The notes beneath the pieces were generated by a model, which was not told the origin of the DNA, ran no database searches, and worked only from the letters and a program-made list of their open reading frames with translations. From a virus (lineage: Duplodnaviria > Caudoviricetes): a DNA stretch of 62,902 nucleotides. Where the stretch lies: positions 1 through 62,902 of the IMG/VR virus record IMGVR_UViG_3300034190_001790; one strand, given 5' to 3'. The position numbers were made by a program, and so were the translations under genes. How positions within the stretch are numbered: position 1 is the stretch's first letter; every line of letters begins with the position of its first letter. Positions 16,701-62,902 of this stretch are shown here, piece after piece.

Positions 16701-18275
16701 GTATCTTTTTTTCAATTCAGGATCATTAGAGATTTTATAATTTAATCCCATAAATGTTACATCGTCTGTATTGTCAATAGTTTCTATAACATCTTCTTTA
16801 GTTTGAGCAACACTCTCACCTTGTGCATCAATTAACTTATACGTTGGTGGAAATAAAAAGCTTTCTGCTTTATTTAACATTGCTTTTTTTACTGGAGTAG
16901 TTACTGGATCTGTTACTTTATTTATGGCATAACTTATTGGTGCCTTACCAGCACCCCCAATAGTTTCAAACCCTATCTCTCTTACATCTTGCTCTTGTCC
17001 TACTAATGCTCTGGCAGCTGACTCACCTACACCACCACCAATCATTTCGGAAGCTAAGGTTGTTCCTATAGCAGCCTTACCAGTTAATTTTTTTGCCTTT
17101 ATAATTCGTCCACCTACTCCTAATGACAACCTGTCTATTATACCTATTGCAGCTCCTCTACCTACAGACTTTCTCCATATTCTATTAAAAGCATCTTCAT
17201 TTCTTAAAATAGACTTTATACCATCTTCATTAAATTCTAAGTCATCTCTTTTATCTATTTCTTCTTTTATAAATTCAGCAAATGATAAACTAGATTCTAA
17301 TGCACCTGAAGCCATAGCAAATGCTGTTCTTAATGTTCCTGGATTAAATGCTCCTACCAATGCTCCAGGGACTGCTCCTACTCCTCCAGCTATCGCTCCT
17401 GTACCAGCACCAACTGCACCACCAGCAGCTATAGTGGCACCACCAGCAGCTAAGGACGCAGGGTTTAATAATTGAGTGATTGTTTGTGCTCCTATCTGTA
17501 GAATAGCTGATGGATTTTTAGCCAAACCTTCTAAAAACCCAGCAAACTTATTATCAGCTTGATCATAAATTCTATTAAAATTCATCATCTCATCTGTAGT
17601 TCCTTGATTTTGTAATGCTTCTTGGGATTGTAAAAAGGCTTCTACCTGCTCATCAGTAGCGTCACTACCACTAATCATTAAAGCGGCTGCCTCATCAGCT
17701 GTATTCCCCTGCATAAGTCCTTGTTTACCAGCACGATATATATCTCCAATAAGATCTGTTACAGAATTTTTACCTACTAACTGTTCTAAGTATGTATCTT
17801 TTTCTTGAGAACCTTCTATAAAAAATTCTCCTCTGTTGTATAGCTCTTTAGTTTGGTCTCTTTGTTCAGGATTTACACTGGTAATTCCAGTATCTTCCAC
17901 TTCAATATCATCAATGGTAAGATCCTCTTCTATTGCCTGATTGTCATCATCTTTAAATGGAAGCCCTGTTGTTGGGTCTATTGGAGCTGTTGGTTCGTTT
18001 GAAGACTCCGATGAAAAAGGATCCTGACTTGGTTGTGAAGGAGACTCCATAGGCTCCTGATCCCCAGTAGGTTCGGAAACGTCTTTTTTTTTTAAGCCAT
18101 AGGCTTGCTCAAAAAATTCATAACTTTCAACCTCAAAGTTTGGCTCAATTACTTGCTCGTAAAATAACTTACGTTTTCTATCATCTTGAAGATAGGCGGT
18201 AAATTCCTCTATACTGCCTAATTCATAATCAGCAGCTAAAGCTTCGTATAATAATTTTATTGCTTTGTTGTTCAT
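10746..18275 (-). CDS. giant internal virion (ejection) protein with zincin-like HExxH motif
   Basis: 2509 aa, last of three genes after the tail block; Gly/Ala hydrophobic stretch near aa 270-310; TIAHEVFHAIL with HEVFH at 15903-15917. Confidence 0.7.
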   Translation of the reverse strand: MNNKAIKLLYEALAADYELGSIEEFTAYLQDDRKRKLFYEQVIEPNFEVESYEFFEQAYGLKKKDVSEPTGDQEPMESPSQPSQDPFSSESSNEPTAPIDPTTGLPFKDDDNQAIEEDLTIDDIEVEDTGITSVNPEQRDQTKELYNRGEFFIEGSQEKDTYLEQLVGKNSVTDLIGDIYRAGKQGLMQGNTADEAAALMISGSDATDEQVEAFLQSQEALQNQGTTDEMMNFNRIYDQADNKFAGFLEGLAKNPSAILQIGAQTITQLLNPASLAAGGATIAAGGAVGAGTGAIAGGVGAVPGALVGAFNPGTLRTAFAMASGALESSLSFAEFIKEEIDKRDDLEFNEDGIKSILRNEDAFNRIWRKSVGRGAAIGIIDRLSLGVGGRIIKAKKLTGKAAIGTTLASEMIGGGVGESAARALVGQEQDVREIGFETIGGAGKAPISYAINKVTDPVTTPVKKAMLNKAESFLFPPTYKLIDAQGESVAQTKEDVIETIDNTDDVTFMGLNYKISNDPELKKRYDDRKMRIITGENIRQKLEAAGITNQNNIDKIIELEIEKNNFIGNDTEAGKKRLKEIKEEISKISGITDDETVTDEVAAPLVEGLEGDGRRAGSGTVVLNDDGTIILNTVDREGSNTTRNKKFPQRIKEKQNSERKGKKSLKGVQSKVSDRVYIVEDQESKGRPDEAYSEIYAKGFDARTKDKDGNLNDREANEKALITRAEKAAIAMAKLLPGTNIVLHKTQKSYQRGYGFGSKPSSRGHYSSSSNDIHINMPYATEQTIAHEVFHAILANQFSKLTNVTRNMAETLKRQIKDPKLLKEIDLFISEYKPRQRNEEVLTKFIGKMAQSFDTLKAPEIKTVKTWVEKVVDFFAPSTPEIKEVTRDFVATDQNLKELLTALAEDITQGTEVESVDFSAFDVSDMGRPVEGADGPIPSNINNDGPSIEVNAEQIDRGGIDVNTIKRGDINELEGANAFVFAADQATYGMIESPSGTRFMFNGGFMYPYGSQSQGSNSAWVFSNETAAKKVLQKVTSSDGVGLVMSQAPAGVSGNLQFYDFLNAEIANAIEKGASPKEMVDFINQKLKLTKVAQGLQKKGLPTQIKDYQELQDLFKTTNFEVRGEFAKTFLSKESFEKFGIYPFAPLKTIDGNIESIVNDPALKNIDYGDVVSAIQFDKDGTVVRLNENDPGYHPAYPFSLPGKPIMVFNNGIDVRKIYPKAKPANPKMNQTPLGEREKTTAARSAMGGQYISNVPKDVQSEDATIDISQEKIDKKKIIGKKKPTEEAQTKDENQTYLFISQDPQLVAEVETNILKGLNQGFKKGLGTIREYLKTLKNDGRLGNKELGKILELVVEEDAFANKEARNETVEKIKKIFIDADRNAEYSKLRVKAKRAATNLKRSIGRIIGDAISGKDITLESLLREVVTIDPSVVPEKTYQAYKDIIDGLGDRLVILDNAEDAGLVAIKAREVLESMNDIYSRIPQLIALFLDNALISPNGTVAYKKTIDFLLDNDLITENDVKIMRAYRDTINPRIKKVKTEKQKAEEKKKLLEGIGKIKISKERTDQVSPLSFPFRKTREDVREFTKLIKDKKALEGLPNEDLSNIIRLANTINNGYAPGIMSRIISKIKAQRDAAPIVSDVKSKKIKLPTIEGMYSKLKTFNPFNKQSKFYNAMERGQLYNIDRLFGDFNTKKMFNAFFNDMAVNQQQMEVNNKKEDKLRDKARKLLEKAYTKLGVVSLNKVAEADARLMFYRIQLEYDTNKLTDKKVKPAIEWLDATIQYLEANQMYDPQSKREVEVLKKIRKDYDKKDVSVSSIYNKFNKQEKEALKILQQIDIDNTAKAVYAAQQRDAAFIARQNYTHISVRPKSRERVDINKDVINDFINSTDANRRPSTKSKSGIERTGLVSPIYTSAINASERGSKFTNLDYYMTTPVRKAKQTFKALKDKLIEDYKGSPPAEVQMFLESIDKAIGQSVQNVLGSNFVENSFMQMVQSSLQKLGYRTMLVSSYRAGVEYLSNMMFAAVHPKTFASGLAKRNKLSTEELINVLTNLGSKTITRVTGTNLMSSKVDLELLNKKSYKGERFVSAAKEKVMGVWDATGKKIQNFTALIADTLISSPDKMVMKPFLLGKLSDTFKEITGKDIDYNKIAANDEAYITENKEALDAAMKEADEFVTLIGATDNPFMSRLQGKDAKGMEELWVNFNNFMTTFLKQEYDTSVIGLAGVMQNTFGYGDSSISRAEGAKLMAAVTLRMTAYSLGIKVAGELMLEAFGVESEDEEKDFDQQVSQALATTFTSLIVGRNFGNAFKTIQNYNIEMLNAEYGDALRDGEYDQYRDAIQYNIIPLVRTGQDYKSGKGMDAGKIAPNFLGPYSPPVKSVAFALRKLTEPDRKTSEARRRQIREREERIPVEFLGNTGFIPLYRDVRKVLLADIYKDLKKKKEKTYSREELEELKKTNYREYKQVMYDKKLLRYEKALEKYKMYLRDKRGWRDANPGKRKPTMPKKPKR

Positions 18276-57485: not shown

Positions 57486-59102
57486 TTAATCATCACTTTG
57501 TCCTTGTCTTTTGTGGGTGATAATAGCATTGGTACTTAATATTGTTGTGGCTACACTTACAGCATTAAGCAAAGCGTTTTTGGTAACCTTTAATGGATCA
57601 ATAATTCCCAACTTAAACATATCGCCATACTTTTCGTTCTTTACATCAAACCCATAATTATATTTATTAGTATACACATGCTCCATAATCCATGCTACAT
57701 CAATGTCAGCATTTTTACATATTTGATTTATTGGAGCTTGTAAGGCTGAAGCTAATATGAGTCTAGCAATATTTGCATTCTCCTTGTTGTCCATAGTCGA
57801 TTTGTTTAACAAGGCTATTGACTCTCTAAGTAATGACAGTCCTCCACCAGCAATTATTCCTTCATCAAGTGCTGACCTTACTGCACACACAGAGTCATCT
57901 ACTCTATCATACAATTCTTTTTGTTCTACATCAGAATTACCTCCTACATATATACAACCTATTGCTCCTGCTAAACTAGCTATACGCTCATTAATAAAAT
58001 CACGCTCATGCTTTATTGTTGTATTCTCTTGTTGTATCTTTAACTCATCAATACGTTTTTGTGTTTCTTCTGGTTTTTCGTCAGTCTTAAATATTATTGT
58101 ACTTTCATTATTACTAACAATTTTGTCAGCATAGCCTAAGTCTTCCATTCTAATTAAACTAAGATCATCACCAGTTTTCTCACTAAAGAACTTTGCGTTA
58201 ACGGCAAATGCTATATCGCTCATAAGCTCAGTTGACTTGTATCCAAAATTAGGTGGTATTATATTACAGAACTTTAATCCATTACGAACAACATTAGCAG
58301 CTAAAGTATTTATAACATTGCCATGACATGGGCCTATAATTAAAAGCTTGTCATTATTTTGTATAATAGGTTTTAATACATTCTCTATTTGCAACACACT
58401 ACTTATCTCTGCATCACAAACTAATATCTTAACTCCTTCTAAAACACACTCGTCTTTCTTTTGGTTATTAATAAACATATTGGAAGTGTATCCCCTAGCT
58501 ACTTTAATACCGTTTGTAACCTCAGCGTATGTTTCTGATGTCATAGAGTTCTCCACTGTAACAATACCGTTAACGCCTACTTGAGTATAGGCGTCAGCTA
58601 TTATCTTTCCAATTTCCTTATCATTGTTTGCAGATATACAAGCAACATCTAATAGTCTAGACTCATTTACCTTTTTAGACTTAACTGTTAAGTTATGTAT
58701 TATTTTTTCTATACACTTATTTATACATCTTATTATTTCAGCTACATTACTTCCCTTCTCAATATACTCTTGTCCTGCCTTTACTATAGCTTCAGTTAAA
58801 ACAATAGCAGTTGTTGTACCATCACCAGCTGTGTTAGCTGTACGACCAGCTGCATCCTTCATCATTTGTATGGCTAAGTTTTCTATAGGGTCATCTAAGA
58901 ATACAGACTGTGCTACAGTAACTCCGTCTTTAGTTATAGTAATCCCTTGTAAATGATCGGCAGATTCTATAAGCACAGTTTTACCTAAAGGGCCTAATGT
59001 GCTCTTTACGGCTTTTGAAATTTTTGTTATTCCTTGAATTAATTTGTGGCGAGCTTCATCGTCAAACGACAAGTCCTTTGGTATGTATCCCTGAGATTTC
59101 AT
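57486..59102 (-). CDS. groEL: chaperonin GroEL (Cpn60)
   Basis: STLGPLG, ITKDGVTVA, AGDGTTTA, IIAGGG, GIIDPLKVTK; no GGM tail; -7 box at 59129-59136. Confidence 0.95.
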   Translation of the reverse strand: MKSQGYIPKDLSFDDEARHKLIQGITKISKAVKSTLGPLGKTVLIESADHLQGITITKDGVTVAQSVFLDDPIENLAIQMMKDAAGRTANTAGDGTTTAIVLTEAIVKAGQEYIEKGSNVAEIIRCINKCIEKIIHNLTVKSKKVNESRLLDVACISANNDKEIGKIIADAYTQVGVNGIVTVENSMTSETYAEVTNGIKVARGYTSNMFINNQKKDECVLEGVKILVCDAEISSVLQIENVLKPIIQNNDKLLIIGPCHGNVINTLAANVVRNGLKFCNIIPPNFGYKSTELMSDIAFAVNAKFFSEKTGDDLSLIRMEDLGYADKIVSNNESTIIFKTDEKPEETQKRIDELKIQQENTTIKHERDFINERIASLAGAIGCIYVGGNSDVEQKELYDRVDDSVCAVRSALDEGIIAGGGLSLLRESIALLNKSTMDNKENANIARLILASALQAPINQICKNADIDVAWIMEHVYTNKYNYGFDVKNEKYGDMFKLGIIDPLKVTKNALLNAVSVATTILSTNAIITHKRQGQSDD

Positions 59103-59125: not shown

Positions 59126-59369
59126 TGACAAATATAACAATAATTATTATATGACAAGTGGCAGAGTTAAATTTAGTTTTTAGGCTTTTATAACAATTTT
59201 ATTTTTTCTTTTTTTTATTTTATTTTATTTTGACTACTAAAAGTCTGTCATAAAAATATAATATAAATATAAATAGCTGATAATAAATAAGTTATAGTAA
59301 ATTATATAAACAAAAAGGTCTGGCAAAAGTCTGTCATAAGTCTGTCATTAACTGTCATTTACTTGTCAT
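59126..59369. repeat. iteron-like TGTCA(T) array around an AT-rich core (candidate replication origin)
   Basis: TG(T/G)CA at 59321, 59332, 59343, 59353, 59364 (10-11 bp spacing) and 59246; inverted TGACA at 59126 and 59152; IHF-consensus match at 59270-59282. Confidence 0.6.
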
Positions 59370-59373
59370 ATAC

Positions 59374-59404
59374 AAAAAAAAAGAGAAAACTATATGTCTT
59401 CTCT
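59374..59404 (-). terminator. intrinsic terminator
   Basis: on -: AGAGAAGAC-ATATA-GTTTTCTCT followed by a T-run. Confidence 0.7.
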
Positions 59405-59437
59405 CTTTCACTACTAATCAAACTAAACGGGATCTCT

Positions 59438-59653
59438 TTAATACTCGTATATATCTCTGTCATTATTCATTCGCATCTTAGCTCTCTCAATACCATCAGC
59501 TATACAATCTATTTTGTATTGCTTTTTCATTTGCTTTCTATACATTGATGCTTGCTCAATTCCTGTAACGCCGTCAGGGCGTCCATTAATTAACCTTCCG
59601 TCCTTAACGTATAGGCCATTTACATAATCTGAAGTGTTACTGTTGTATTCCAT
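59438..59653 (-). CDS. hypothetical protein, first gene of the - arm
   Basis: ATG 59653 (MEYNSNTSDYVNGLYVKDGRLING...); TATCTTTA -7 variant upstream, terminator downstream. Confidence 0.65.
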   Translation of the reverse strand: MEYNSNTSDYVNGLYVKDGRLINGRPDGVTGIEQASMYRKQMKKQYKIDCIADGIERAKMRMNNDRDIYEY

Positions 59654-59699: not shown

Positions 59700-60065
59700 T
59701 TGAGGATAATACTACACTACACGGCAAACTCGCAAAATTTTAAAACGCTTTTTTTTACTAGGGGGGGTACTAGATTTGGCTGACGCACTCGGATTTTTTT
59801 GGCTTTTTGTTTTCATCTGGCTGCGTCCAGTGTCGTACTGGCGGCGTCCAGCATCGCCCACGCTCCACGCTCCGAATCGCTGCGGATTCAGGTGGATTCT
59901 CCCCTCCATTACCCCACATTCCGCTAGATATGAGAGCATAAGAAACAATGATCATCGTTTTTAAGGACAAAGAACTGCGTCTTTATACCCCTCCGAACTG
60001 CACAAATAGTAAACAAAACGCAGTGAAACACGCCGCTGTAAGTGATTGATACTCAGCATATTAAA
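59700..60065. other. GC-rich non-coding divergence region (candidate genome end/packaging region)
   Basis: visibly GC-rich, G7 tract at 59761-59767, short repeats and hairpins, IHF-consensus match at 60039-60051, lies between the two divergent arms. Confidence 0.5.
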
Positions 60066-60082
60066 AAATAGTTGTGTATTTA

Positions 60083-60115
60083 TTTGTTTTATAATAATTT
60101 ATTTATATATATTTG
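60083..60115 (+). promoter_or_regulatory. early promoter, Bacteroidota -33 TTTG / -7 TATATTTG
   Basis: TTTG at 60083-60086, 21-nt spacer, TATATTTG at 60108-60115, upstream of the first early gene. Confidence 0.75.
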
Positions 60116-60145
60116 CACATAAATCAAACAAAAATTAAACAAATT

Positions 60146-60325
60146 ATGACTAGAGAAATCACTACCGAATGGACGTTAAACGAGTTAACAACACTAAGAA
60201 TGATTATCGCAGATAGAATTAGAGAAATGAGAGACAATAATATTGACTACGATACTCCTGAAATGAGAGGACTACAAACCAAGATAACCTTGATGCACGA
60301 AGATATGGTTTTTGATAACATCTAA
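60146..60325 (+). CDS. early hypothetical protein
   Basis: ATG 60146 after an AATTAAACAAATT leader (the track's TTG 60113 lies inside the promoter box). Confidence 0.7.
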   Translation: MTREITTEWTLNELTTLRMIIADRIREMRDNNIDYDTPEMRGLQTKITLMHEDMVFDNI

Positions 60326-60333
60326 CCTTATCC

Positions 60334-60392
60334 TACTCCTAGTGGCTCATAGTTAATCGCTATGGGCTTTTCTAGGTAGAGGAATAATCCTC
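60334..60392 (+). ncRNA. conserved intergenic stem-loop motif, copy 1
   Basis: TACTCCTAG-TG-GCTCATAGT-(TAATC)-GCTATGGGC-TTTT-CTAGG-TAGA plus hairpin GAGGA-ATAA-TCCTC. Confidence 0.7.
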
Positions 60393-60415
60393 GACTAATT
60401 AAACAAACAAACATT

Positions 60416-60703
60416 ATGAATATAACAAAAGTTGATATCCTCACTAGAGTAGACCAAAAATTAGGTACAGAATTACTAGATAAGTTTTACTCAGTAAACA
60501 TGAGTTCAGGAATAGAATGCAGAATACAAGGAAAATTCTCTCCTGATTTAGTATTAGAATTGAATGAAAAACTAGGTATAGACCCATACAATGATAACCC
60601 ATGGGAAGTTGACGAGGGTGGCTTTGTTAATCTATCATTCGTTCTTATATCTGCTATATCAGGATGTAATGACAAGGTTAATCTAGAGATTACTCTTGCA
60701 TAA
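60416..60703 (+). CDS. early hypothetical protein
   Basis: 95 aa, leader AATTAAACAAACAAACATT. Confidence 0.75.
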   Translation: MNITKVDILTRVDQKLGTELLDKFYSVNMSSGIECRIQGKFSPDLVLELNEKLGIDPYNDNPWEVDEGGFVNLSFVLISAISGCNDKVNLEITLA

Positions 60704-60711
60704 ACCTAGCA

Positions 60712-60771
60712 TACTCCTAGTGCCTCAATGCTCATCGCATTGGGGTTTTCTAGGTAGAAGACAATAGTGTC
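60712..60771 (+). ncRNA. conserved intergenic stem-loop motif, copy 2
   Basis: TACTCCTAG-TG-CCTCAATGC-(TCATC)-GCATTGGGG-TTTT-CTAGG-TAGA plus hairpin GACA-ATAG-TGTC; compensatory changes relative to copy 1. Confidence 0.7.
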
Positions 60772-60791
60772 ATAATTAAACAAACAAACAA

Positions 60792-61082
60792 ATGAGTACA
60801 TATAAAGTTAGAGATACACAATTCGGTAAAGACTTTGATAAGCCGATGAACATCAACGGCAGAGATGCCAACAAAGGATGGTACAATCTTGTACTATCTA
60901 TTGCCGAATTAAAGATGTATATCAGAGGATTAAAACCACATAGAAACTACACTCTCAAAGGTGTGAAAGCATACTTTGGATTAGATATGTTTAAGTACAA
61001 CAAGCATGAGTTGTTAAACTGCCTAGAATCGTTCAAGAGACAGCTTGAGGATTATAATGGCATGGACACTCAAAGCGAATAG
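60792..61082 (+). CDS. early hypothetical protein
   Basis: 96 aa, same A/C-rich leader; its TAG stop overlaps the ribozyme start. Confidence 0.8.
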   Translation: MSTYKVRDTQFGKDFDKPMNINGRDANKGWYNLVLSIAELKMYIRGLKPHRNYTLKGVKAYFGLDMFKYNKHELLNCLESFKRQLEDYNGMDTQSE

Positions 61083-61135
61083 ATACTCTGATGAGGACTC
61101 AATGTCCGAAACGAGCAGCAATGCTCGTCAGTATC
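61082..61135 (+). ncRNA. type I hammerhead ribozyme
   Basis: stem I GATACT/AGTATC; core CTGATGA at 61088-61094; stem II GGAC-TCAAT-GTCC; GAAA at 61108-61111; stem III CGAGCA-GCAA-TGCTCG; GTC cleavage triplet ending at 61129. Confidence 0.95.
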
Positions 61136-61161
61136 ATAAGATACCAATTAAAACAAACAAA

Positions 61162-61395
61162 ATGAAAAAATCAAATTATGCATCAGTATTATATACTTGC
61201 TACGAGTTAAGTAAGAACAATGTTCTTGGAGTAACTTATGAAGAATCTAAGTGTCCTGAATCATTAGACAGAAGTACACCTGAATCACACAGCATTGAGA
61301 TACTTAAGCTAACCTTAAACAATGATGATGTGACAGAAAAGTTAGAGGGAATATGGGAGGAGATTATAGAACACATTGCTAACGAAAACAATTAG
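61162..61395 (+). CDS. early hypothetical protein
   Basis: ATG 61162 (MKKSNYASV...) with the typical leader; the track's longer start runs through the ribozyme. Confidence 0.7.
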   Translation: MKKSNYASVLYTCYELSKNNVLGVTYEESKCPESLDRSTPESHSIEILKLTLNNDDVTEKLEGIWEEIIEHIANENN

Positions 61396-61399
61396 AATC

Positions 61400-61876
61400 A
61401 TGAGAAAAAAATATATAGTTATCGATACATGGAACGGAGATGGATATTCTTCAGAAAATGGAGTAGATACAAAACAATTCGCATACAAAAAATCAGCATT
61501 CAAATGGGCTTATAAAAGAGCATTGAGCAATGCTGATGGAGATGCAAAATATGTAACAAGATACTCTGATGAGTATGCACAAATAGACAAGGGAGCAGAG
61601 GGAGACGGATATTTTTTTGATAGTTATGACGATAATTGTGGTAGCTATCAAGTATGGGAGTTAAAAGATGCATATGCGTTTGTGATTCTATGTAATGTAA
61701 ATGATTGTGCAATGCTCACAAAGGAACAATTTGAAGAGCAAACAAAATCGTTAGATGATGAATACGGAGAGGATTTAGAAGAGAATTCACATACAGAAGA
61801 GAATGGAGATAAATTTTATAATTCTCTTGTTGATGACTACGATTATCAATTTAGACTAATTAGTAACTTAAAATAA
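61400..61876 (+). CDS. acidic early hypothetical protein
   Basis: ATG 61400 (MRKKYIVIDTWNGDGYS...), Asp/Glu-rich C-terminal half. Confidence 0.75.
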   Translation: MRKKYIVIDTWNGDGYSSENGVDTKQFAYKKSAFKWAYKRALSNADGDAKYVTRYSDEYAQIDKGAEGDGYFFDSYDDNCGSYQVWELKDAYAFVILCNVNDCAMLTKEQFEEQTKSLDDEYGEDLEENSHTEENGDKFYNSLVDDYDYQFRLISNLK

Positions 61877-61881
61877 ATAAA

Positions 61882-62094
61882 ATGGCATACAATGAATTCG
61901 ATGAATTAGAAAAAAATATTCAGCATTGGTACTACACATATCAAACCATACACAAAAAGATCTCGAGTAGTGTTTTTAAATCTTGCTCTAAAGATGAGTA
62001 CAACCAGTATGAAAATGCGATTGCTAAATTAAAAGAAGTAAAGAAGAAGTACGGAACTATAGATATTACAGATATAAAAGATTTACATCGTTAA
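61882..62094 (+). CDS. early hypothetical protein
   Basis: 70-aa helical ORF. Confidence 0.7.
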   Translation: MAYNEFDELEKNIQHWYYTYQTIHKKISSSVFKSCSKDEYNQYENAIAKLKEVKKKYGTIDITDIKDLHR

Positions 62095-62110
62095 TTTGTG
62101 TTTGTTTGTT

Positions 62111-62155
62111 CTGCGAGATGCCTCACTATGAAAGTAGTGGGGATTTCGTGGTACA
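62111..62155 (+). ncRNA. conserved intergenic stem-loop motif, copy 3 (divergent)
   Basis: CTGCGAGA-TG-CCTCACTAT-(GAAA)-GTAGTGGGG-A-TTTCGTGG-TACA. Confidence 0.6.
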
Positions 62156-62183
62156 AGACAAATATTAATTAAAATTAAATAAA

Positions 62184-62387
62184 ATGAAAGCAAATCAATT
62201 ATTAAAATTTCTGCAAGATGTAGAACAACAAGTAAATTCTTATGGAAGAACTTTGGAAGATGTTGAAGTAAACTTTAGGAGAAGTGATGATTCTGACATT
62301 GAACAAACAGATTTCGTAGGGGTGGATTTATTTGATGAAGAATCAAATAAAATAGTAGAGAGTATAGTAATAATGGGTAAATATTAA
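62184..62387 (+). CDS. acidic early hypothetical protein
   Basis: 67 aa with A-rich leader. Confidence 0.75.
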   Translation: MKANQLLKFLQDVEQQVNSYGRTLEDVEVNFRRSDDSDIEQTDFVGVDLFDEESNKIVESIVIMGKY

Positions 62388-62397
62388 ATTAAATAAA

Positions 62398-62902
62398 ATG
62401 GGATACAATACAGATTGGAACGGACAATTAAAAACTAATAGAGCATTCACTACACAAGAATTAATAGAATGGGAAGTAATAGTTGAAGAGAGACATGATG
62501 ATGAATTTAAATACGGAGACGAAAGAAGAGAGTTTCCATCAATATGGTGTGGATTTGAGATTAAAAACATTACTGATGATTCAGGAACTTATGGAGTATT
62601 TAGATGGATGGGTCATGAGAAGACATATCAGGGCAAAGAATGGACAATATTCTTTTTGCAAAAATGTATGGAATGGAGCCATAATGAAGAAATATATGCA
62701 GAGGGTGTTTTGGAATGGAGAGGAGATGAAGAGGATGATATGGGGGCTCTTGTAATTGAAAAAGCAAGTGACTTAGATGACGAGGGAGCCATGATGATGA
62801 TGCATATAGAAAAGGTGGAATTTTCCTACAAAAGAGAGAAGACTGCATATATATATGATGCAAAAAAAAGAGGATATAAAGTTCTTAAATCAAATGTGCG
62901 TT
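62398..62902 (+). CDS. acidic early hypothetical protein running off the window end (not in ORF track)
   Basis: ATG 62398 (MGYNTDWNGQLKTNRAFT...) stays open for 168 codons to the last base. Confidence 0.8.
   Translation, partial: MGYNTDWNGQLKTNRAFTTQELIEWEVIVEERHDDEFKYGDERREFPSIWCGFEIKNITDDSGTYGVFRWMGHEKTYQGKEWTIFFLQKCMEWSHNEEIYAEGVLEWRGDEEDDMGALVIEKASDLDDEGAMMMMHIEKVEFSYKREKTAYIYDAKKRGYKVLKSNVR

Follow-up and report, generated by a model that had tools for sequence, protein, structure and literature searches.

Positions 61082-61135 (+ strand) of a 62.9-kb virus record hold an intact type I hammerhead motif that is almost certainly a ribozyme kept by selection. Judged from its sequence, the element is a member of a large, uniform class of type I hammerheads carried by phage contigs. 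The record was analysed whole (62,902 nt), is estimated to be 98% complete, and is referred to below as the window. The element is probably a genuine, selected hammerhead that cuts the transcript of a block of small genes, making the flanking genes separate mRNAs.

Motif structure and tests against chance

The motif was read directly in the sequence (Table 1). It is exactly as the first-pass annotation had described it: the core elements CUGAUGA, GAAA and UH and three perfectly paired stems are all there, G61090 is position G5, and the comparative evidence agrees. The conserved core is complete (C3 U4 G5 A6 N7 G8 A9, G12 A13 A14, A15.1-U16.1, and H17, which is not G). The core consensus is established knowledge, and agrees with the text of PMC3088659. 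Sequence and fold both give type I topology, with stem I open and stems II and III closed by loops, and 61070-61150 folds at minimum energy into the three-way junction (-20.2 kcal/mol, z -3.1). The two positional claims were likewise read in the sequence. The TAG stop of the upstream ORF lies at 61080-61082, stem I begins with the G of this codon, and the predicted cut falls 32 nt before the ATG at 61162.

A tertiary contact between loop II and stem I is required for fast hammerhead cleavage at low Mg2+. No internal loop or pseudoknot for such a contact was found in the motif. Features of the class that hint at a contact are a stem I of 6 bp (7 bp in a few members), a fixed A on its 5′ side and a 5-nt loop II; A61081 may take part in it.

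Table 1. Coordinates of the ribozyme, its flanking ORFs and the competing hairpin in the window.
Feature	Position	Strand	Description	Basis
Unpaired A directly 5′ of stem I	61081	+	Invariant in the class	
Stem I, 5′ strand	61082-61087	+	Pairs with 61130-61135, 6 Watson-Crick pairs	Direct reading, fold, class covariation
Catalytic core CUGAUGA (C3 to A9)	61088-61094	+		Direct reading
Stem II hairpin	61095-61107	+	4 bp (61095-61098 with 61104-61107), 5-nt loop	Direct reading, fold
Core GAAA (G12, A13, A14, A15.1)	61108-61111	+		Direct reading
Stem III hairpin and U16.1 (61128)	61112-61128	+	6 bp (61112-61117 with 61122-61127), GCAA loop 61118-61121; seventh pair A61111-U61128	Direct reading, fold
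Predicted scissile bond after C17 (61129)	61129-61130	+		Located from hammerhead consensus
Stem I, 3′ strand	61130-61135	+	5′ end of the downstream RNA after the predicted cut	
Alternative 5-bp hairpin	61131-61145	+	61131-61135 with 61141-61145, loop AUAA	Fold prediction
Downstream leader after predicted cut	61130-61161	+	32 nt; A-rich, unstructured past the hairpin	
Upstream ORF	60792-61082	+	96 aa; TAG overlaps the ribozyme; homologue in L002 (85% identity)	
Downstream ORF	61162-61395	+	77 aa; homologues in L003, L004 and L005	

A loose type I descriptor (at least 4, 3 and 3 pairs in stems I, II and III, G-U pairs allowed) was run on both strands of the window. The site was the sole match, and two matches were obtained in 300 dinucleotide shuffles of the window. 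A covariance model, R1, was built from 69 relatives, with the window copy among the seed. With filters off, R1 gave one match in the window (61080-61137, 71.1 bits), as it must by construction because the window copy is in the seed; the runner-up scored 12.7 bits (E 1.2). The window holds a single hammerhead copy.

A search with the Rfam covariance models, proposed in the first-pass annotation, returned no hammerhead in the window (Rfam 15): no family of any kind reached gathering score in the window, and no hammerhead model matched at E≤10 in 60900-61300. RF00163 Hammerhead_1 (45 positions, gathering score 34 bits) represents the same ribozyme class and the type I topology, yet when run alone gave nothing in the window at E≤10. 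Twelve related loci with many hammerhead copies (99 kb) were also searched at Rfam gathering scores. No hammerhead matched in them either, and the sole Rfam match was a glutamine riboswitch. The miss is a limit of the curated models and not of the ribozyme definition. Given this, the case stands on the consensus as read by eye and on comparative evidence rather than on a curated model. A glutamine riboswitch aptamer (RF01739, 50 bits against a gathering score of 35) was recorded on the minus strand of viral contig L122 (1673-1725), where two hammerheads of the class are also present.

The window motif is not a product of chance. A fortuitous resemblance without ribozyme function would fit the lack of any score from the Rfam models, but it is contradicted by the shuffle test, by covariation and by conservation in relatives, and its probability is negligible.

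Related hammerheads in phages

Viral contigs were scanned with a pattern in which only the core and three stem II pairs were fixed, and at least 119 contig stretches matched. The matches listed (124 pattern rows) were screened by script for a stem I of at least 4 bp and a stem III of at least 3 bp; 105 of the 124 passed and are distinct, full type I hammerheads. The 19 remaining rows were fortuitous matches in coding sequence, incomplete copies, or ones whose stem III is very long. An alignment was made with MAFFT from 69 of the 105 listed members, those with a short stem III.

In this alignment 99.0% of stem cells pair, against 69.5% in shuffles and 27-43% with slid partners. Double-sided changes number 307 (83.4 in shuffles), a count reached in none of 500 shuffles. 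They occur in 12 of 17 pairs, including five of the seven in stem III; the other five pairs never vary, and four of those were fixed by the pattern. The stem II pair that the pattern left free covaries (UA 57, CG 10, AU 1, GC 1 in the 69 members), and covariation in stem II is fuller among the matches to R1. CUGAUGA is invariant apart from N7 in the 69 sequences, partly since the pattern fixed it.

The 105 listed members have 37 different stem I sequences, all of 6 bp apart from a few of 7 bp. The base before stem I is A in every one of them, and in all 136 rows of the model-fitted alignment; directly after stem I, 96 members have A and 9 have U. A 5-nt loop II is present in 99 of the 105, and position 17 is C in 92 and A in 13.

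A search with R1 gave 170 matches in 100 sources (839 kb in total). Twelve of its matches lie within 6.3 kb of one contig (L047 2290-8609), on the same strand and before almost every small gene; most of these copies have a common stem I, and the copy at 2624-2677 (35.4 bits) appears degenerate. Members outside the seed were found in three cultured marine phages, Flavobacterium phage vB_FspP_elemoB, Methylophilales phage MEP301 and Pelagibacter phage Jormungand, at 47.6-57.5 bits, and are unannotated there. At the cultured-phage loci (L125 1495-1556, which is the minus-strand copy at 17211-17272 of NC_062741.1 from elemoB, a phage of Flavobacterium sp. BAL314; L126 694-749; L127 995-1059) the ends or starts of annotated CDSs overlap the ribozyme. 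The annotated start of elemoB gp69 lies inside it and so may have been called wrongly.

Most matches to the short pattern in a prokaryote genome collection were not hammerheads. R1 confirmed copies in 8 of the 80 listed pattern-matched loci (21 matches), from assemblies that include Flavobacterium, Bacteroidota, Butyrivibrio and Nitrosopumilus, and short contigs binned as Aliivibrio. Two assemblies of the archaeon Nitrosopumilus carry members on their chromosomes, at L139 6748-6801 (57.9 bits) and L213 4442-4493 (52.8 bits); these copies may lie in proviruses.

Three related IMG/VR contigs were reached through the flanking proteins (L002/L003, L004 and L005). In L002/L003 the corresponding junction holds the same ribozyme, except that its stem III loop is GAAA instead of GCAA. 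In L004 a hammerhead with a 58-nt stem III precedes the homologue of the 77-aa gene, and a second copy lies two genes downstream. L005 has the 77-aa homologue without a hammerhead upstream and holds the further copy only. That copy (L004 1995-2052, L005 3572-3629) overlaps the last seven codons of the gene before it, whose stop codon sits in loop II. Between L004 and L005, one pair in its stem I and one in its stem II are changed on both sides. The encoded residues differ as a result (Y to C, D to E) and both helices are kept: the RNA fold is under selection. Close relatives thus carry one or two copies, and MW202828.1, whose primase-helicase is 65% identical, carries none, so the element is dispensable. 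A DNA similarity search of 60000-62902 against deposited phages gave no match.

Gene context and the competing hairpin

As the first-pass annotation had proposed, the ribozyme occupies the gap from one gene's stop codon to the start codon of the next and has the same orientation as both genes; this was read in the window and is typical of the class. An ORF of at least 40 codons begins 19-38 nt past the cut in 74 of 108 class instances, and the median distance from cut to start is 29 nt over the 102 instances with a start within 400 nt. In 58 of the 108, the end of an upstream frame falls within -4 to +17 nt of the base that opens stem I. Eleven of the 108 lie inside a same-strand frame of at least 100 aa, and eight inside one on the opposite strand. 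A Shine-Dalgarno-like motif precedes 24 of the 77 starts that lie within 60 nt of the cut; none was found in the window leader (61130-61161).

Searches of Pfam and PHROG with the 96-aa and 77-aa ORFs returned no family. Because no stop interrupts the frame of the 77-aa ORF as far back as 61045, an N-terminal extension across the ribozyme was considered. It was rejected as coding because L002 has a stop three codons before the ATG and because the region covaries as RNA.

The two genes belong to a + strand block of small unclassified ORFs that begins near 60113 and, past the record ends, goes on to genes for a PDDEXK nuclease, a primase-helicase and an SNF2 helicase. This context fits an early status of the flanking genes and does not prove it. 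No terminator-like site was found on the + strand of 60113-62902, and a scan of the block gave fewer promoter-like sites than expected from shuffles. Contigs from four of nine listed sequencing runs were compared with this region. Those from RNA libraries cover only 60716-60941, 61356-61615 and 61802-61900, and 61082-61135 lies outside them; one further run, probably of DNA and possibly the source of the window itself, spans the whole region. These contigs bear on cleavage in neither direction. Relatives of the primase-helicase that have a named host in the phage collection all belong to phages of Bacteroidota (Flavobacterium, Polaribacter, Cellulophaga, Maribacter, Bacteroides), which makes a flavobacterial host likely.

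Three other features were recorded upstream of the block. A GC-rich patch at 59760-60050 (up to 0.59 GC, genome 0.33) lies between divergent gene blocks, holds no plausible ORF and is 85-89% identical in L004 and L002. It has no Rfam match at E≤1; its consensus folds stably on either strand, a few compensatory pairs are seen on the minus strand, and it may be a structured RNA. An AT-rich stretch of 220 nt at 59245-59463 holds five of the ten copies of CTGTCAT in the window, three of them within 28 nt (59331-59358), and resembles operator or iteron repeats in a divergent control region. Over the whole window the motif is no more frequent than chance would give (10 copies, against 7.3 on average), and the clustering alone stands out. 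The third is an ORF at 57486-59102 (minus strand) for a Cpn60/GroEL-type chaperonin of 538 aa (Pfam PF00118, E 2.7e-60).

Fold prediction gave a hairpin just past the cut (Table 1) that is absent from the first-pass account. It dominates the folds of the predicted cut product (-3.9 kcal/mol, 61% of the ensemble, z -4.2), where it caps the 5′ end. In uncut RNA (61082-61175) the minimum-energy fold takes the hairpin in place of stem I (-21.0 against -20.2 kcal/mol), so cleavage may be partial or conditional. A module of stem I, hairpin and leader stands before three unrelated genes in five contigs, with differing stems II and III, and the independent lineage L027 has an equivalent 6-bp hairpin of different sequence. 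A hairpin of at least 5 bp was counted in 15 of 134 class members, drawn from lineages that are not independent (permutation mean 7.4, sd 2.4, maximum 17 in 1000). With this modest enrichment, the 5′ hairpin was rejected as a general feature of the class.

Proposed function and relation to known ribozymes

The hammerhead would be transcribed within the + strand block of small genes from near 60113, as what appears to be a single unit. Self-cleavage is predicted at the bond that joins C61129 to A61130, with no protein needed, and is very likely to take place in vivo. As stem I is the open stem, nearly the whole ribozyme stays on the upstream RNA, which would end in a compact fold with a 2′,3′-cyclic phosphate; the downstream RNA would start with a 5′-OH only 32 nt before the AUG at 61162. 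These ends follow from established hammerhead chemistry. The first 15 nt of the downstream leader can fold as the small hairpin, with the remainder A-rich and open. The flanking genes would then be carried by separate mRNAs whose decay and translation start are independent of each other, and the element would punctuate the polycistronic transcript as a natural ‘insulator’. A role in insulation or processing has about an even chance of being right.

This processing view matches that of Perreault et al. (2011, PMC3088659) and of a 2019 review (PMC6765202). According to the former, hammerheads clustered in prophages, in polycistronic RNAs of about 2 kb, cleave in vitro, and their processing into gene-length mRNAs has been proposed.

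The near equality in energy of the two folds also suits a conditional ribozyme, in which hairpin and stem I exclude each other and the fraction cut depends on what shifts their balance, which could be Mg2+, temperature, or a ribosome or protein bound to the leader. The element would then be a switch and not a constitutive cutter. The retention of the stem I and hairpin module before three unrelated genes, and the 6-bp equivalent in L027, are in line with such a switch. Against this, the hairpin occurs in only 15 of 134 members from non-independent lineages, no ligand- or protein-binding feature was found, and the hairpin could act solely after cleavage, to block re-ligation or cap the 5′ end. 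We regard a switch as unlikely. A similarly low probability is given to a portable cassette of hammerhead and leader that is active, spreads by recombination and brings the phage little or no benefit. Patchy presence in close relatives (0, 1 or 2 copies), the occurrence of one stem I and leader module before unrelated genes, and a copy in L089 that combines the stem I of one type with the stem III of another all speak for it, and Perreault et al. (2011, PMC3088659) describe self-cleaving ribozymes as common in selfish elements. Against it stand the intact core, compensatory changes that persist even when the upstream protein is altered, and the narrow range of distances to stop and start codons; the presence of copies at almost all junctions of some contigs (L047, 12 in 6.3 kb) is hard to square with neutrality.

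Another set of observations concerns stem I. It is identical in 67 of 129 within-locus pairs of copies against 591 of 9051 between-locus pairs, whereas stem II is not enriched in this way (41 of 129 within, 3410 of 9051 between), and a gene between two copies with the same stem I would have complementary ends. The ribozyme, reversed or acting in trans, might then ligate, circularise or pair RNAs with matching stem I halves. This is very unlikely: the window has a single copy and so no second partner, recent duplication or gene conversion could also explain identity within genomes, and the account of the prophage examples in PMC3088659 states that spliced or circular products were sought and none found. 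A related proposal, to which we assign a small chance, is that the window element is one copy of a portable ‘gene punctuation’ module of marine phages in which the stem I sequence itself matters, the ends of excised RNAs pairing or ligating into closed or circular mRNAs that resist exonucleases. If it were true, the copies within a many-copy genome would retain one stem I sequence as their stems II and III diverge, each excised gene-length RNA would have a 5′ end complementary to its own 3′ ribozyme, and the single-copy lineage of the window would protect its end through the local duplicate of the stem I strand (61141-61145), as a 5′ hairpin.

The preferred reading, cleavage that separates the flanking genes, has parallels in known systems. 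In RiboJ-type synthetic insulators, an engineered part derived from the ribozyme of a plant satellite RNA, a hammerhead and then a small hairpin precede the translation start and give a defined 5′ end regardless of upstream sequence. The window element shares the order of hammerhead and hairpin before a start codon. The prophage hammerheads treated in PMC3088659 are, like it, DNA-encoded, found in phage-derived blocks between genes and on the gene strand, with the full consensus core. Those examples come from prophages of cultured bacteria and are described there as mostly type II with a pseudoknot; the window element, from a lytic-type marine phage that is uncultured, is type I: its stem I is fixed at 6 bp with an invariant A beside it, and its stem II has 4 bp and a loop of 5 nt.

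The hammerhead of haloviruses HF1/HF2 (HHphage), as outlined in PMC3088659, lies 13 nt before the start codon of an early helicase, and the 5′ end mapped for a transcript is no more than 3 nt from where it cuts. It resembles the window element in standing shortly upstream of a gene start, in what is or appears to be the early region of a dsDNA tailed virus. It differs in being archaeal, with a two-base core insertion and a proposed salt-dependent activity, whereas the window core is canonical. Type I hammerheads in bacterial and phage DNA are already known, as noted in PMC13725137. The ribozymes of that paper are also type I, have a long stem III and lie a few nucleotides before ORF starts (one cuts 7 nt before ORF2); its title and abstract link them to translation initiation. 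They lack the usual loop-loop contacts and are described in RNA genomes with eukaryotic hosts, in contrast to the bacterial DNA phage of the window.

As gene-flanking phage hammerheads were described in 2011 and type I is known, the window element is not a new kind of ribozyme. Possible novelties are the uniform class as defined here, the rules of its placement, the failure of Rfam to detect it and the finding that cultured marine phages carry it. Some members may already be listed in Dataset S1 of PMC3088659. Among the papers listed from a searchable literature library that excludes supplementary data, none links hammerheads with pelagiphages or Flavobacterium phages.

The class is missed by current Rfam models, and annotation pipelines will therefore overlook it. 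According to the 2019 review (PMC6765202), the purpose of self-cleaving ribozymes in bacteria and phages needs more work. The present finding adds a class, its carriers and quantitative rules of placement, at a stop codon and with the cut about 19-38 nt before the next start. The phage-host pairs in culture that carry the class (elemoB, MEP301, Jormungand) allow direct tests of cleavage and of its effect on expression.
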